DNA of 64,000 nt, from NCBI GenBank assembly GCA_042408215.1, contig JAYFMW010000011.1, forward strand, positions 26,032-90,031, written 5' to 3'. Numbering within the stretch: position 1 is the first letter of the stretch; each line of letters opens with the position of its first letter. The stretch comes from Microcoleus sp. (GTDB taxonomy: Bacteria > Cyanobacteriota > Cyanobacteriia > Cyanobacteriales > Microcoleaceae). The translations under genes were made by a program, and so were the position numbers. The notes beneath the pieces were generated by a model. It worked only from the letters and a program-made list of their open reading frames with translations. It ran no database searches and was not told the origin of the DNA. Of this stretch, positions 25,651-64,000 are shown piece after piece.

Positions 25651-28576
25651 AATTTCTCGGTTTCTGATATTTACTCAACAAAGCCACAAATCGCTTGTAA
25701 TCCAAAGGCTTTCTCAAATACTCCGCCGCTCCCAATTCCCAACCCTGATTTTGGTCGTCCAAAAAAGTCGTCATAATCACCGGAATATCAGCCAAATCTG
25801 GATCGGCTTTCAAAGCAGACAGCACCGCCCAGCCATCCATACTCGGCATCATCACATCTAGAGTAATTGCATCGGGCCGCAACTCAGACGCCAACAGCAG
25901 CCCCGCTTCACCGCTAGCCGAAGAATGCACCCGAAATCCCTGTTTGGACAAGCAGCGGGCGATCAGCTCCCGTGCATCCGGGTCATCGTCAATCACCAAG
26001 ACGATCGCAGCATCAGGTAACAGCGACGCAGCCGATCGCATTTCGGCTTCACTGACTCGCTCCACCGCTACACCTGTCTCCGAATCAAGAGAAGACTCAT
26101 TCTGAAATTCTGTCATTTCTGTCGATCGCCCAGCTTCTTTCTTGCTTTTAACCTCAATCGGTAATCGGATCGTAAAAGTAGAACCCTTCTCAAACTCGCT
26201 GTCAACACTAATGTCTCCGCCCATCATCTGACAAAACTTGCGACTAATTGTCAGCCCCAAACCAGTACCGCCGTACCTGCGGGTGGTGGAATCATCCGCC
26301 TGTGCGAAGGCCCCGAACAGCCTCAACACCTGATCCTCAGTCATCCCAATCCCGCTGTCGGTGACTTGAAAGACGATCGAGGGCCTTTGACACCCAGAGC
26401 GATCGCGAGGCGAGGAGTCCGAATTGTCTATCTGCAAAACCGCCTCTTTCTCCAGCCAAACACTAATCGTAATTTTGCCGCGAGAAGTAAACTTAGCAGC
26501 ATTGCTCGCCAAATTCAGCAGCGCTTGTCGTACTTTCCCAGCATCAGCGTACATTGTGCCGAGATTGCTGTCACAGTGGATGCTAAGAATGTTGCCATTT
26601 TTCGCGATCAGGGGTTGAACAGTCGTTACCACCTCAGAGAGCAAGTTCGAGATGGGGAAAGTCTCCAAACAAAGAGTCATCTTTCCGGCTTCAATCTTAG
26701 AAATATCGAGAATATCGCTAATAATATTCAGCAACTGCTTACCTGCAATATTAATGCTGGTCAAATCCATCACAAACTCTTCTTGCTCTAGTTCCAGGGC
26801 CTCTTCTTGCAGTAGCTCACTGTAGCCGATAATCGCATTTAAAGGCGTCCGCAACTCATGAGTCATATTTGCCAAAAATGTACTTTTCGCCCGGTTCGCA
26901 GCCTCCGCAGCCTCCTTAGCGACTTCCAATTCAAGGCTACGTTCCTCTAGCTGCTGACGCCGCACTTCCAAACCCTTGAGCAAACTGCTAATTTGCAGTG
27001 CCATTGTATTGAGAGTATAGGAAAGCACGCCGATCGCATCATTAGACACAACAGGCGATCGAGCCGTCAAATCCCCGCTCGCCATTAATTCCGCAGCTTC
27101 CCTGAGCAAGCCGAGATTCCGAATAATTGACGACACCGACACCAAAGCAACTATTCCGGCGATCGAACTCAAAACCCAAGCAGCCATCAGCCAACGCTGA
27201 GTGCGACTCACCACCGCCAGAGTCTGCTGCACCAGCACTGCAATTGCTTCGTCAGGAACCCTCCCAGCCGGGGCCCCAGCAGATTGTATTCCCAACAAAT
27301 AGTTTTTCATCTCCACAGCACCGATCCACCCAGCCCCTACGGCCATCCAAGCGATCAGTACCAAAATCACAAACAGCCCAATCAAAGACGCCCGAGTTCC
27401 CACCGAGAGCCGCCTCGGAGCAAGTGCCGCCGCCCAAGGATAGTTTTTGAGAAAAGGATCTGGCTGTACCGGTTCGCCAGAATTCCAAATCTCCTCAATT
27501 TGACCGTCTGACCTCACCTTACCAATTCGCACTGTTTTCCAGGTATGCTGCGTTTCGGCATCTATTTTAACTTGACCTGAAGGCGCCGCAAACTCGATAT
27601 TTTTAGCAGCCGCCCTGACTTTGGCAACTTCTGTTGAACCCGCTTTTTCTACTGCTTGCTTCCACAGGTAAACGCCCAAATAAGCCGCTTCGATCGGGTC
27701 ATCCGTCACTCGATTTTTCCCATATTTAGCTTTATAAGCCTTGACAAATTTCTGATTTTCTGGTATATCCACCGTTTGGAAATAGTTCCAAACTACCAAA
27801 TGTCCGGCAATATTTTCCGGTCCGATCGCCCGCACCTCTTCCTCTGCTACGCTGACCGACATCACCGGCAACTTGTCAGCCGTCAAGCCAGCCGATCGCA
27901 GATGAAGGAAAAAAGCCACATTGCTATCGCCGTTGAGAGTATTCAGAATTGCATCCGGCTTAACTGCTAGGATCTGGGCGATCGCTTCATCAACATCCCT
28001 CGAACCCAAAGGCAGATACACTTCCCCCGCCAACTCTCCCCCTTTTGCCACCAGTTGAGCTTTCACAATCAGATTCGCCGTGCGGGGAAAAATATAATCC
28101 GAACCCAGCAAGAAAATTTTCCGCTTCGACAGTGCCAGCAAGTAATCCACACAAGGGATAATTTGTTGATTAGGAGCAGCCCCAGTGTAGAAAATATTGG
28201 GAGACTGCTCTAATCCCTCATACTGCACCGGATAAAACAGCAACCCATTCAGATTCTCGAACACTGGAAGCACAGCCTTGCGGCTAGCCGAAGTCCAGCA
28301 ACCAAATACTACCGCCACCTGAGCTTCTGTGAGCAATTGCTTAGCTTTTTGAGCAAAAGTCTGCAAATCGCTTGCCCCATCTTCCATCACTACCTCTAGG
28401 GGGCATCCGAGCACTCCTCCGGTAGCATTAATTTCCTCAACAGCCAACAGCGTCGCGTCTTTAACAGAAATTTCGCTGATAGACATCGTGCCAGTCAGCG
28501 AATGCAACACGCCTATTTTTATCGGCTCACTCGCCCTGAATTCTACTTCGAGGGGGGTACTGCTCCTTGCTCCCAT
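25649..28576 (-). CDS. Hybrid sensor histidine kinase: UrtA/AmiC-type ligand-binding domain-2TM-HAMP-HisKA-HATPase-REC
   Basis: [31 protein letters not shown] (UrtA-like); [26 protein letters not shown]. Confidence 0.92.
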
Positions 28577-59973: not shown

Positions 59974-60612
59974 CAGCGATTCAATCCTGAGTTTTGGTTA
60001 TTTATTGACTGGACGCATGGGGGCCGAGAAACCGGGTTTTTTACGAAAACACTTTGTTGCAGCCCGCAGATTCGGCAAAAAACCCGGTTTCTGAGAGTCG
60101 GTGCGTCCAGGACTGGAAATGCGATCGTTATTGTAACTGACGCGGGATATTACTTTGTTACTTGTGATACTGTTTATTTTTACTCCATGTTTGGCAAGTA
60201 AACAATTGCATTTTATACCATTTTTATCTAAATCAAAGTTTAAATTCACATTAATTTTTTTCGGTAGTTCTTGAGCGTAAACTCATAAAATCTGAATGCT
60301 GTGATGGGGGTGAAAGCCAGCGGTAATCAAGCAAATTATAGATCTATACAGATTTCAAAATGAGATTTGTGTAAATTTAAATTAAGAAAATTAAATCTAG
60401 AAGGGAACTTCTCTGATTACCGATCAAAAATCTCAAAACTTTTCCTGGTTTCGGGCGATCGGGCGCTGATGAATGCTGGGGCGGAGCGCTTTTTGGGGAG
60501 GAGAGCGGGCGATCGCACTTTCATGGGGGTAGGAAAAATGCCGCACTCATCTGCTAGTAATTTCGCTATCCAAATTTTTGGTTGTGGATCTATAATGAAT
60601 CCCCAGCAATAA

Positions 60613-61041
60613 CTAGGTGTACTCGACAGATAAAGGGATAAACTTTTGTGGGATAGAAGCAAGCCGATCGCACAAGCGCTTCCATCCCGACTCATTGCGA
60701 AGCACGATACAGCCAGAAGAACCCGGTACATTAGCATCAAAATGCAAACCGAGCTCCCCGCGAACGCGATCGCCTGAGCCTACAGGGTCAGGTGTAATGT
60801 GATAAAACAGCCCCTCAACTCCCCTAGTCTCTAGCCAATAAGGCTCATTTGAGACTTGGTACTCACCGGCCGGAATCGGGCCCCGCCCCCGCGCCCACAC
60901 ATCCTCTGGCTGCTGCCAATTAGTACAGCCAGAGGTAGCCAAATAGTTGATCGCGGTGCCATCGGGATAACTTAGCAGAAGATTCCCATAAAGCAACTCA
61001 GTAGAGAAATTGAGATTCATCGTAAAAAATAGTTTGTGCAT
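60613..61041 (-). CDS. L,D-transpeptidase-fold (DUF2778/Tlde1-like) peptidoglycan enzyme, putative lysin
   Basis: ATSG...GPIPAGEY...GLHFDANVPGSSGCIV (H...SxGC catalytic pattern). Confidence 0.7.
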   Translation of the reverse strand: MHKLFFTMNLNFSTELLYGNLLLSYPDGTAINYLATSGCTNWQQPEDVWARGRGPIPAGEYQVSNEPYWLETRGVEGLFYHITPDPVGSGDRVRGELGLHFDANVPGSSGCIVLRNESGWKRLCDRLASIPQKFIPLSVEYT

Positions 61042-61042
61042 T

Positions 61043-61231
61043 TTAATTCCCTCCGCGTGGAGTTGGTACGAGTAGAAATCCTAATCCTGTTGTCATCCCT
61101 CCAATTATTGTCGCCAATTGACCAGGGACATCCTTGCCTTGGGCTAACAAAATAAGAACACTTATAGTAAGCAACATAATTGCTACACAAAGACTGACTA
61201 CCGCAAATCTGTAGCTATATTTATCCATCAC
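61043..61231 (-). CDS. Small 2-TM membrane protein, holin-like
   Basis: 62 aa, two hydrophobic helices; overlaps the upstream ORF by 4 nt and ends 1 nt from the lysin ORF. Confidence 0.6.
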   Translation of the reverse strand: MMDKYSYRFAVVSLCVAIMLLTISVLILLAQGKDVPGQLATIIGGMTTGLGFLLVPTPRGGN

Positions 61232-61542
61232 AAATTTGGATCAGAGGGAATATTTTCCTTGAAAAATTCTTCTGGGTCTTTGAAAGTTTTGTTACGTTTT
61301 AATACATTCTTTACGTTTCTCATTTCGCGTTTTAATATTCCTATCTGAATCAGATTATTGTCTATATTTCGTTGAATTTTTCTGGCAAATTCTATTTGAG
61401 TCTCTTTCATATCTAGTTGTATTTTCGCTATAGTCAGTTGCGAGCGAATGGTCGCAACTGCAAAAGCACCGGAGACTCCTAGCACTAATAAACTACCGAT
61501 TGTGAGAATGGCTTCAAATAAAGATTTAGATAGGTTAATCAT
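61228..61542 (-). CDS. Hypothetical protein, N-terminal TM plus coiled coil
   Basis: ILTIGSLLVLGVSGAFAVA followed by a charged helical segment. Confidence 0.6.
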   Translation of the reverse strand: MINLSKSLFEAILTIGSLLVLGVSGAFAVATIRSQLTIAKIQLDMKETQIEFARKIQRNIDNNLIQIGILKREMRNVKNVLKRNKTFKDPEEFFKENIPSDPNL

Positions 61543-61694
61543 TTAGATAGTTTTCCCTACATTCTACGTTTTGATTGCTACTTTAAAGTTTGACAGCAGT
61601 GGGTGTTGTTCTAGCAAAAAGAGGTTAATCCGCCTTGTTGGAATCGGCGGGCGATAATACTTGAGTTATCGCCAGAACCGATTCCTATGATTCA

Positions 61695-62246
61695 TCACTC
61701 GTTTTTCTTGTTTGCCAATTTGGCTTTGTTTTCAAACGAACTGTCAAGAATCACTCTTGTCCCTGCTGGAGTTTTGAAATAACTAGGCTTTTTGGTCGTT
61801 CCTGTAAATGCTGAATTAATCCAAAGAGCAATTGCAAGTAAGCTCATGCAAGAAGGTACTCGAATAGTAACTTCATTGATGACTTTATCTCCACCTTTAC
61901 CTTTGCGGGAATAACCGCCTCCTGTTGGTATCTTAATTGCTCTCCCAATAATCTTGGATGTACCACTGCTCATGCTACCCCCCCCACCACTGCTAATCGT
62001 GACAGGGCTTTTCGCCGTACTAGCGGTTTTGGTTTTCTTTTTCGCAACAAACAGTTGGTCACTATCTACGATACTCTTAGCGACTGGTGAAATCCCAAAA
62101 TGTGCGATCAAGTCTTCTCGTACTTTGAATTGTGTGTAAGAAGTAGGGTCAACTGTCGCGGATACTGTAATTGACTGAATTCCTTTCTTTCCCTTAGCCT
62201 CTTTAATTTCGTCTTCAGCTATTGGGAGTAGGTCTGCTGTTGGCAT
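61695..62246 (-). CDS. Hypothetical Lys-rich protein
   Basis: 183-aa ORF with a strong AAGGAGG RBS upstream. Confidence 0.7.
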   Translation of the reverse strand: MPTADLLPIAEDEIKEAKGKKGIQSITVSATVDPTSYTQFKVREDLIAHFGISPVAKSIVDSDQLFVAKKKTKTASTAKSPVTISSGGGGSMSSGTSKIIGRAIKIPTGGGYSRKGKGGDKVINEVTIRVPSCMSLLAIALWINSAFTGTTKKPSYFKTPAGTRVILDSSFENKAKLANKKNE

Positions 62247-62321
62247 ACTTATTTACCTCCTTAATGATTTAAATTTGTTTCTAAAAGGGCAGCAATCAAT
62301 GTAGCTACCCTTTTAAAAACA

Positions 62322-62567
62322 TTAATATACTTCCACAGCTTCCGTAGCAATACCCGTAGTATTTGTATTAACCAGAACTGGCAACGATAAGTTTACAATT
62401 TTTGTTCCGCTCATATCGTCGGTAGTATTGGAAGTAATAATTCTGCGGACAGTTACTCCCGGTGCGGCAGAGTTGATAGCGATGAGTTGCGCGTTAGTTA
62501 CGAATTCAATGAGCTGAAGTAGTTGTCCTTCTAACGTTGTCGCAGTTAATGTTGCTGGTGCAGCCAT
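62322..62567 (-). CDS. Small Thr/Ala-rich hypothetical protein (paralog of the ORF at 63849)
   Basis: ATLTATTLEGQLLQLI; hairpin downstream. Confidence 0.65.
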   Translation of the reverse strand: MAAPATLTATTLEGQLLQLIEFVTNAQLIAINSAAPGVTVRRIITSNTTDDMSGTKIVNLSLPVLVNTNTTGIATEAVEVY

Positions 62568-62739
62568 GATGATCTACCTATTTGCTTTGGTTGACATTTT
62601 TACTATATCCGACAAAAGATAAAATTCCCACACTTCAAAATGGCTTGTCTCTGTCCAAACCCATTAGGTTTGCACAAATTTACCTACCAATCTTAAACAA
62701 ATATCATCCTAACAGAACAGGTAGAAAAATTACTTGCAA

Positions 62740-63639
62740 TTATATACTTACTTTCAATACCACATTGTCCTTAACGATTGGTATTGATTTTTGCAGTGAG
62801 CCCAGATATAATTCAGCCCCTACAAATTTACAATCCCCTACAGGTCTTTTTTCGTTTTGACTAACCTGACTGAAATTGATTTTTTCACTAAAATTAAAGC
62901 CATCCCCATCAGGTACTTGATCGAAAATGCCTAGCATAGCTGTAAACAACGCAATTCCACCTTTTTGTGTTTTCACATAGGCGTATCCTTCAACACCTTG
63001 CAACCGCGCTACCATACCCGAATAGCTAAGGACCGATCGCCCTTTTTGCCATATGTACTCCGAATCTCCAAAAATAGTTTTTATTTTAGTAGCCCAACGA
63101 TTTATATCGGCCTCTTTAAGTAATTTAATATTTTCACTGGCCTTTGCTATTTTAGTATTGTCGGTGAAACCTACACACCGAATTTGTTTCACCCCTTTTG
63201 TGTTATCACCTTTAAAAAATAGCTTGATACAGGGGTAGCCGCGTAGTAATGGCTTGCTACCCTTATTAGAAACTGAATCAAGCACTGCTTTTTCTCTTGT
63301 GATAGCCATGATGCCGGATCTCAAATCACTACACGTACCCGACAATAGATAGCTGTTTTTAGGTTGGTCTTTTTCTGGCCAATACTCAATCGTCATAGCA
63401 CCACTTGTACTGGTAGTTGGTGTTATGTTTACGTATTTTGGTTGATTCCAGAGACCCGCTTTGAAATTCGTATCTTTATCTCGTTTTCCATTCGGAAAAC
63501 CCATTTTGAATTCATCCCACCATTGCTCAAAGTCTATCCCATTGGTGCGTATGAGTTCACGCTGGACAAAAAGCAGTGAGGGTTCTTCTGGGGTGAGCGC
63601 TAAATCCGTGGCTTTAATGGTAGTTTCTTTAGAGGACAT
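62740..63639 (-). CDS. Hypothetical protein, 299 aa
   Basis: Long uninterrupted ORF in AT-rich DNA; no motif recognised. Confidence 0.7.
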   Translation of the reverse strand: MSSKETTIKATDLALTPEEPSLLFVQRELIRTNGIDFEQWWDEFKMGFPNGKRDKDTNFKAGLWNQPKYVNITPTTSTSGAMTIEYWPEKDQPKNSYLLSGTCSDLRSGIMAITREKAVLDSVSNKGSKPLLRGYPCIKLFFKGDNTKGVKQIRCVGFTDNTKIAKASENIKLLKEADINRWATKIKTIFGDSEYIWQKGRSVLSYSGMVARLQGVEGYAYVKTQKGGIALFTAMLGIFDQVPDGDGFNFSEKINFSQVSQNEKRPVGDCKFVGAELYLGSLQKSIPIVKDNVVLKVSI

Positions 63640-63848
63640 AATAGTATTGTTCTCGATTAAGTATAGTGTAAAATATTCTGATATAGTTTTAGTATGCGTG
63701 CAAAAAGCCGTCTTACAAGCGGTTGTGCGAAAATCAAAACTGAAGTTAGATTCAGGTTAATCCAGTAAGCTCAGTATTGGCGACATTAATCTGACTGACG
63801 GACTAAAAGCAGCACCTTATATAACACAATGGTACCGACTGCGACATC

Positions 63849-64000
63849 ATGGCCATAATCACACCTGGTACTGCGGCAACCATAAATGCCACTACGATAG
63901 AAGGTCAATTATTCCAATTGGTACATTTAATCAACAGTGCCGAAGCAATCCCTGGGGGCGATTCTAATAAATTCTCATTAACAAAAGGGGAAGATGGGAC
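63849..64000 (+). CDS. Hypothetical protein, N-terminal part (runs off the window; not in the ORF track)
   Basis: MAIITPGTAATINATTIEGQLFQLVHLINSAEAIPGGDSNKFSLTKGEDG; shares a motif with 62322-62567. Confidence 0.7.
   Translation, partial: MAIITPGTAATINATTIEGQLFQLVHLINSAEAIPGGDSNKFSLTKGEDG

Follow-up and report, generated by a model that had tools for sequence, protein, structure and literature searches.

Gene content at the contig end

The stretch analyzed here, termed the window, comprises 64,000 nucleotides of a Microcoleus sp. genome (GenBank assembly GCA_042408215.1, hereafter G000), corresponding to positions 26,032 to 90,031 of contig JAYFMW010000011.1 (G000:C11:26032-90031). Beyond the xfp gene, its end carries the open reading frames (ORFs) and sites listed below, which probably represent the lysis end, together with a portion of the structural module, of a temperate virus-like element of ~17 kb belonging to an undescribed cyanobacterial lineage. 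Sequence comparisons leave very little doubt that the element is mobile, and they strongly point to integration of this copy by an IS110-family DEDD recombinase encoded on another contig (C17).

60592-60596, plus strand: ATAAT, the left-target arm on the host side, at the insertion site upstream of xfp (5/5 match to the left target guide)
60597-60606, plus strand: left end of the element, GA core and conserved terminus ATCCCCAG (right-donor arm; motif and guide pairing)
60613-61041, minus strand: putative lysin, 142-aa Tlde1/YkuD-like peptidoglycan enzyme (sub-cut-off Pfam matches, His...Cys motif)
61043-61231, minus strand: putative holin-like 62-aa membrane protein (hydrophobic segments, position before the lysin)
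61228-61542, minus strand: 104-aa protein with an N-terminal membrane segment and a coiled-coil-like tail (hydrophobicity)
61695-62246, minus strand: 183-aa basic protein, net charge +13 (one-per-element slot)
62322-62567, minus strand: 81-aa paralogue of the "A" protein, with one unit instead of two (hhalign)
62740-63639, minus strand: 299-aa hallmark protein F0 (family profile, AlphaFold model)
63849-64000, plus strand: start of a family A gene, which opens the divergent structural arm (truncated where the contig stops)

All six minus-strand ORFs of the initial annotation (299, 81, 183, 104, 62, and 142 aa) were present at these lengths, and the divergent ORF, with its start at 63849, is still open at the window edge. 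Since the contig ends at 64000, the last base of the window, the following 15-30 kb are not directly readable. A loose end at 63762 had no match within the genome. The region had also been described as AT-rich and depleted in HIP1 sites and other repeats. Its G+C content (60613-64000) is indeed 0.408 compared with 0.44-0.46 per contig, and the last HIP1 lies at 60766. Among 7,279 genome windows of the same size, however, 15% likewise have no HIP1, so that composition alone is weaker evidence than had been implied. The loss of repeats was borne out by 7-mer tandem repeats, with 0 in the element and 13 in the remaining window.

Searches of Pfam, PHROG, and NCBIfam gave none of the window ORFs an above-cut-off name. 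The 142-aa ORF gave sub-cut-off matches to the Pfam families Tlde1_dom (E 4.5e-5) and YkuD (E 0.011), and the motif H-x(7)-[ST/A]-x-G-C is kept in 15 of the 16 members of its family; its sequence matches in PDB were designed beta-trefoils only and were taken as spurious. The 62-aa ORF, previously called a protein with two transmembrane segments, has a clear hydrophobic segment at residues 4-34, but the second is weak (Kyte-Doolittle value 1.37); it matched Pfam CyanoTRADDas_TM below cut-off (E 3e-4), and its family occurs in 13 compiled elements, mostly immediately before the lysin. The 104-aa ORF, previously called a transmembrane protein, has one hydrophobic segment at residues 7-33. Its family, found in 10 elements and with no significant match in the three profile collections, may supply a lysis accessory or a virion membrane protein. 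A membrane ORF and a wall-enzyme ORF, with family scores below cut-off, form a predicted lysis-type cassette.

Among the putative structural genes, the start of the divergent ORF is 57-72% identical over 48-50 residues to proteins of ~165 aa (family A) in relatives, and the 81-aa ORF aligned with family A at an hhalign probability of 94% over 68 columns (361 of 946 family pairs were compared by hhalign), suggesting a minor structural or adaptor protein. The 183-aa family has 19 homologues, the window copy included, and its slot, rather than homology, makes it the leading candidate for a major structural protein that binds nucleic acid.

Distribution and conserved gene set of the family

The ORFs had been proposed to belong to an integrated phage-like element of an undescribed kind, a proposal to be abandoned if they proved to be conserved, syntenic core genes or to match a known non-viral system, with no integration or replication module downstream. 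On the contrary, the ORFs are patchy, F0 occurring in 26 of 78 genus relatives and often in multiple copies, integration modules exist, and the site beside xfp is empty in relatives (see below). Across the phylum, the F0 profile matched 48 of 401 cyanobacterial genomes, which represent 29 of 151 genera; in two of these genomes the match is marginal and partial. A second F0 profile retrieved 403 clusters; among the 120 listed, every named one was "hypothetical" or "uncharacterized". Identical-score F0 matches were found twice per genome in G357 (C1:1070698 and 6171125) and in G422 (C226 and C16), which suggests recent duplication or transposition of whole elements.

In total, 65 loci were compiled, 64 of them with an intact F0; G115, with a split F0 gene, was excluded from the counts. 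Family E was present in 48 of the 64 elements, an A-type small protein in 56, and a long protein B in 59. Exactly one of five basic protein families occurred in 60 of the 64 and two in none, namely family C (37 elements), C14 (15), the 183-aa family of the window (3), C57 (3), and C115 (2). In relatives, the family A gene is followed by F3, a fibre-like gene, and the long protein. The lysis genes lie at the end of the module, where the hydrolase is interchangeable between Tlde1-like, C39 peptidase (PHROG endolysin), and amidase types; fibre-like domains are likewise exchanged. Altogether, sequence comparison shows a conserved set of A, the long protein B, F0, one basic protein, E, a membrane protein, and a wall hydrolase, often with a fibre-like gene. 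Gene order around F0 is shuffled between elements. Even between close relatives, the F0-flanking gene blocks vary in orientation, possibly owing to inversions, and the element itself carries a serine resolvase/invertase gene (G000:C17:1-549).

Among the 65 loci, an IS110 gene was found in 12 and a tyrosine-recombinase profile match in 36, the 20-kb compiled loci often stopping short of the far end of the element. One complete element of ~15.8 kb (L037), which encodes a tyrosine integrase and a Dam methylase, splits a SOUL gene with a 16-bp direct repeat, and the G124 element has a 43-bp repeat; a direct-repeat search found nothing in 4 of 8 elements, three of these four probably having been searched over wrong or incomplete ranges. 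Two circular plasmids of Nostocales HT-58-2 (15,633 and 37,028 bp; pHT582-1, CP019637.1, and pHT582-2, CP019638.1) carry the module with ParAB, their F0 proteins being 36% and 41% identical to that of G273 and adjoined by core genes. Judging from sequence, family members carry a tyrosine recombinase or an IS110 recombinase or persist as ParAB plasmids.

Left end and insertion site

The initial annotation had placed the left end of the element in this region, and the boundary can now be set at the GA dinucleotide at 60597-60598. The genome of relative G007 is 96% identical to the window through 60596 and diverges beyond. In G003, the region upstream of xfp continues uninterrupted into the sequence that opens the G000 contig C9, and the same C9-start sequence occurs at the xfp locus in five further relatives, so the check for an unoccupied site beside xfp was positive. 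Contig C9 opens exactly with the empty-site sequence TAATGGAAAAG (C9:1-5), hinting at excised or unoccupied copies of the chromosome in the sequenced culture. At the same position past the xfp upstream region, G007 (L121) holds other DNA, and the position may be an insertion hotspot.

Public sequencing runs placed the same end elsewhere as well. In runs X1 and X11, contigs join the element end to the sequence at C3:135903-135932, after which TATAAT-GA-AAATC follows inside a tnpB-type (IS605-type) insertion sequence (IS), and in run X17 the end is joined to a repeated host sequence followed by TATAAT-GA-AAGGCT. TATAAT, which is similar to a -10 promoter box, precedes the core at all three target sites of the lineage (window 60592-60598, C3:135932, and C3:208722). 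The read depth of the element was 2-3x that of xfp in three DNA runs; this was not counted, being based on contig depths in runs chosen for holding the element.

The probable second arm and its IS110-family recombinase

The other arm of the element is most likely contig C17:1-8261. This arm opens with the resolvase and early genes, and the same genes follow the structural arm in G048, G071, G076, and G078, where both arms are contiguous. An IS110-family gene at C17:7042-8259 closes it; the stop codon of this gene overlaps TTAGAGT-GA, and the next sequence is the right half of the IS605-type site joined in X1 and X11. According to synteny with G048, ~5.5 kb are missing between the arms, giving an element of ~17 kb. 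All 30 contigs of G000 are at least 20.4 kb long, so a short contig has possibly been dropped, and two collapsed copies or a mixed population may explain the assembly breaks. Contig C18, which is low in HIP1, and the start of C29 were rejected as continuations of the element.

The residues D7, E64, D108, D111, and S319 of the recombinase were invariant in 12 of 12 aligned proteins, as was the S319-G320 pair, S319 being the probable catalytic serine. The C17 protein matched PF01548 (DEDD_Tnp_IS110) with an E-value of 4.6e-6 (26.9 bits versus a cut-off of 29) and PF02371 (Transposase_20) just below cut-off (E 0.001), and PF01548 was above cut-off in seven relatives. The family profile matched the solved ISCro4 recombinase (9T56; E 1.6e-7) at positions 4-210 only, and a PDB sequence search with the C17 recombinase alone returned nothing significant. 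The protein is thus predicted to combine a DEDD (RuvC-like) domain with a C-terminal Tnp domain, as IS110 recombinases do. An IS110 bridge-RNA recombinase on another contig, overlooked in the initial annotation, is the most likely integrase of the element in the window.

A bridge RNA that matches the ends and targets

Upstream of the recombinase gene lies a conserved two-loop RNA, with two-sided changes at 19 of 39 predicted pairs of the consensus structure. The donor loop of this RNA matches the sequence formed where both element ends meet, AGAGT-GA-ATCCCC, and its target loop matches the chromosomal target at xfp, ATAAT-GA-AAAGCT, in which ATAAT at 60592-60596 equals 5/5 core-proximal bases of the left target guide. 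The exact motif GAATCCCCA, which pairs with the right donor guide GGGTGATTC if one unpaired RNA base is allowed, was present in all nine relatives tested. It has a single occurrence in each, located 8-21 kb upstream of the IS110 gene, which gives element sizes of 11.5-18.8 kb.

Guide-target matching was evaluated in these nine relatives and G000, i.e., ten elements with ten different left guides, which include kin and hence are not independent. The comparison excluded G048, whose left end falls outside its contig, the C3 element of G000, in which the recombinase gene is broken, and G094 and G115, which have a different RNA and gave no left-end motif. The left guide matched the five bases left of the GA core at 50/50 positions (permutation mean 22.4, maximum 46, 0/200,000), and the right guide matched the five bases right of the core at 43/50 (permutation mean 21.8, maximum 41, 0/200,000), the G000 value being taken from the C17 flank. 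The donor guide also tracks the variant right ends of G410, G273, and G071, a partly circular observation because the end motif was written after viewing. Like the RNAs of IS110 elements, this RNA thus appears to carry guides that pair and covary with both target and donor, and the ends of the element are very probably set by it.

The consensus hammerhead core consists of CUGANGA and GAAA with three stems and an NUH cleavage triplet. In 11 of 13 loci, a hammerhead-like core immediately precedes the bridge RNA (at L156:6762-6832 in the G000:C17 locus). The region has a three-stem centroid fold (z -2.05) and no Rfam match at E <=1; it could release the 5' end of the bridge RNA. In G170 (L067:7044 to L068:~2430), a 15.4-kb member lies near the 3' end of cas1 and separates its last 22 codons, with cas2 and an array beyond the inserted element; the target loop of this member matches that cas1 site.

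Concerning location alone, and compatibly with the element being virus-like, the attachment at xfp might be an assembly artefact or a minority allele, with the main copy located on C17, at the IS605-type site upstream of ispH. The empty-site sequence at the start of C9 and the two runs that join the end to the IS605-type site speak for this. However, the xfp flank matches the left guide at 5/5 and the C9 start matches the right guide at 8/9 bases with a one-base offset, and since a random mis-join would not give such guide matches, this explanation is considered unlikely.

Host CRISPR spacers

The host carries CRISPR spacers against the element, which had also been overlooked. Of the 320 spacers in G000, four have matches on the two arms, each flanked by GTT; GTN is the type I-D protospacer-adjacent motif. 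Two protospacers lie in the window:

63900-63932, strand not assigned: perfect protospacer, 33/33 aligned (spacer at C12:71491, GTT flank)
62335-62369, strand not assigned: imperfect protospacer, 30/35 (spacer in the C12 array, GTT flank)

Those of the C17 arm match at 34/34 and 34/37. The four spacers form two adjacent pairs in the C12 array, and this pairing supports the assignment of both arms to one element. None of the 320 spacers matched the host portion of the window (60.6 kb). Six further ones match related loci; two 36-bp spacer-like matches in G071 and G010 were rejected as lying outside any array. A type I-D cas locus is located at G000:C26:80223-92036, in which cas10d ends early relative to its profile, the match extending across stops close to the 3' end, and the cas6- and cas1-like genes are split. 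This damage may be real decay or an assembly error, and a damaged type I-D locus may explain the tolerance of self-targeting spacers.

Nature of the element

The initial annotation had interpreted the region as the late arm of an integrated, possibly non-tailed phage-like element. Integration, the undescribed family, and a lysis-type cassette are upheld by the above results, whereas particles, their lack of a tail, and a capsid ORF are putative. The absence of recognizable tailed-phage head genes was confirmed with profiles, as 105 proteins (Pfam) and 103 proteins (PHROG) from six elements gave no terminase, portal, or major-capsid match; the six include L037, complete between its direct repeats, and ~5.5 kb of the copy in the window are unseen. 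The matches obtained were to integrases, a resolvase, Dam, a helicase, lysins, and fibre fragments, and one accessory protein weakly matched head-decoration and "structural protein" families.

Two core proteins, F0 and C, were folded with AlphaFold, and both models are confident and of alpha/beta type. The F0 model (predicted local distance difference test, pLDDT, 87.8; predicted template modeling score, pTM, 0.62) had a best VIA Z of 5.4 in the fold search, no Foldseek match in PDB, a single BFVD match to an unnamed protein (A0A510E869; E 1.8e-4, TMq 0.32), and nothing usable in the ESM Atlas (TM <=0.32). Family C (pLDDT 90.1, pTM 0.79; median net charge +11) has three N-terminal helices and an alpha/beta domain, with a best Z of 2.6 and no BFVD match. 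These searches name no family for either protein, an absence that is no proof of new folds. No HK97-fold capsid was found by profiles or among the chains returned for the two models, and neither model had a jelly-roll match. The beta-rich family E showed sub-threshold ESM Atlas matches (0.81-0.82) to unnamed viral clusters. The Walker-A pattern occurred in 9 ORFs of the 64 loci and in no core family, yet it is insensitive, since it missed the ATPase-like gene of L037.

Sequence databases added no named relative. INPHARED phages had no match for F0 (three queries, one of only 94 aa), C, or A5; two scans of IMG/VR, which rely on short exact patterns and are insensitive, found no relative; and PDB sequence searches returned nothing significant for the alignments A1, A5, A6, A7, and A8. 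Family C and its slot-mates are the putative DNA-binding coat.

Overall, it is fairly likely that the element makes its own infectious particles. As the joined ends (AGAGT-GA-ATCCCC) and the target (ATAAT-GA-AAAGCT) would each be bound by a separate loop of the bridge RNA, the recombinase-RNA complex would excise the whole element as a circle and reinsert it at a GA core, and a change in the target loop would move the lineage to a new site. On induction, the early genes would replicate the circle, the basic protein would condense and coat the DNA in the absence of a terminase or portal motor, the membrane protein and wall hydrolase would lyse the cell and release the particles, and the fibre proteins would attach to the next host. 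In its broadest form, a reading to which we give slightly better than even chances, the family comprises widespread, undescribed tailless cyanobacterial viruses with virion folds not yet in PDB, one branch of which has taken on an IS110 bridge recombinase that serves, reprogrammed by nature, as the integrase of genomes reaching ~19 kb, with a hammerhead-released bridge RNA and retargeting into defence genes such as cas1.

Several points weigh against this interpretation. No circle-junction read was seen in the assembled contigs of public runs, and no capsid gene was recognized by profiles or by folding of F0 and C. The link to C17 is indirect because ~5.5 kb between the arms are unassembled, and the xfp junction is bridged by none of the 31 contig pieces listed of 331. 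As for the guides, the columns and the right-end motif were set after the sequences had been viewed, the right guide of G295b matched at 0/5 at the fixed register, and the offset needed at xfp makes this an imperfect target. The 183-aa ORF is tied to family C by slot exclusivity and charge only, the hhalign comparison of the two families (E 0.04-0.07) being not significant. Furthermore, spacers are no proof of a virus because CRISPR also targets plasmids.

Among the alternatives, a phage satellite would integrate and excise by itself, possess its own fibre and lysis genes, and be packaged in a helper capsid, its core proteins redirecting helper assembly. The size of 11.5-18.8 kb, the integrase and primase-like genes, and the lack of a recognizable capsid or terminase are in accordance with this. 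A core of five to seven genes common to 29 genera is not, and lysis and fibre genes are unusual in described satellites, rendering it rather improbable. Less probable still is a non-viral integrative element whose "structural" genes build a bacteriocin-like or export particle released by the lysis genes: no known virion fold was found and two members were deposited as plasmids with ParAB, but the 105 proteins contained no conjugation or relaxase profile match, and the module is always accompanied by a recombinase or replicon and is CRISPR-targeted, as expected of a self-transmitting invader. A very divergent or reduced tailed prophage with head genes missed by profiles is the least probable, given the lack of terminase, portal, and major-capsid matches even in L037 with its 16-bp repeat and the dissimilarity of the F0 and C models to HK97-type chains in the lists returned, despite tail-fibre, tail-needle, and S74 chaperone matches in accessory genes and weak matches to tape-measure (one F3, E 5.5e-4) and Phage_tube_2 (one A protein, E 0.005).

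Comparison with known systems

The integration system resembles that of the IS110 elements IS621 and ISCro4 as described by Durrant et al. 2024 (PMC11208160), in that a DEDD and Tnp-domain recombinase is paired with a two-loop RNA bearing left and right guides for target and donor (the LTG/RTG/LDG/RDG scheme), the two-base core is part of the pairing, long att repeats are lacking, and repeated host sequences are targeted. Unlike these bare IS, the predicted unit moved here is 11.5-18.8 kb long and contains virus-like genes. IS621 has the core CT and a bridge RNA assembled across the circle junction region, whereas the core of the present element is GA, its bridge RNA is preceded by the hammerhead-like core (11/13 loci), and the RNA would not be assembled across the junction, because its position is internal to the element and far from the left end. 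A full-text literature search found no description of the family or of an IS110 recombinase as a provirus integrase, in articles whose supplements may list these recombinases. The accessible text of bioRxiv 10.64898/2026.10.21.760802 takes 1 kb around the gene to map IS110 ends and mentions neither cyanobacteria nor prophages.

With regard to viruses, the element shares with temperate Caudoviricetes an integrase, early genes, fibre-like genes, and a putative holin-like and endolysin cassette, but it is ~12-19 kb long, and neither a terminase or portal nor an HK97 capsid or clear tail module was detected. It shares with PM2-, PRD1-, FLiP-, and Microviridae-like viruses a small genome, membrane-type proteins, spike-like genes, and the lack of a terminase, but it showed no jelly-roll match (two proteins folded) and no conserved packaging ATPase (insensitive Walker-A pattern). 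Phage-inducible chromosomal islands (PICI), capsid-forming PICI (cf-PICI), and P4-like satellites are similar in size, integrase, and the primase-like genes of some members, and differ from the element in its own lysis and fibre genes and its unrelated conserved core. The plasmids pHT582-1 and pHT582-2 are, unlike the copy in the window, circular with ParAB, and were deposited with hypothetical proteins in records without a virus interpretation.

If particles are confirmed, the family would represent a new lineage of viruses whose capsid differs from those known. Such viruses would then occur in roughly one in eight of the cyanobacterial genomes sampled, including mat- and crust-forming Microcoleus. 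Independently of particles, the junction data point to natural bridge recombinases moving 11-19 kb, and the ten natural guide-target pairs with the GA core could serve genome engineers as ready-made test cases. Such a virus-like element would be able to switch its attachment site via a few RNA bases, one insertion cutting off the last 22 codons of cas1.

Other elements in the genome

A second, more distant and damaged family member is located at G000:C3:~444200-459800 (L119), with F3, the long protein, an F0-like protein of 281 aa, E, a C39 lysin, and a short tyrosine recombinase; IS elements interrupt its fibre gene and IS110 gene. Integrated elements at G000:C29:1-6800, C24:1-3540, and C30:126857-135407 contain small membrane-protein genes seen in some family members, with a primase-like gene in those on C29 and C30, a tyrosine recombinase in that on C24, and no F0 found nearby. 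Finally, at G000:C3:468601-472646, three consecutive genes occur twice in tandem, possibly as an assembly duplication.

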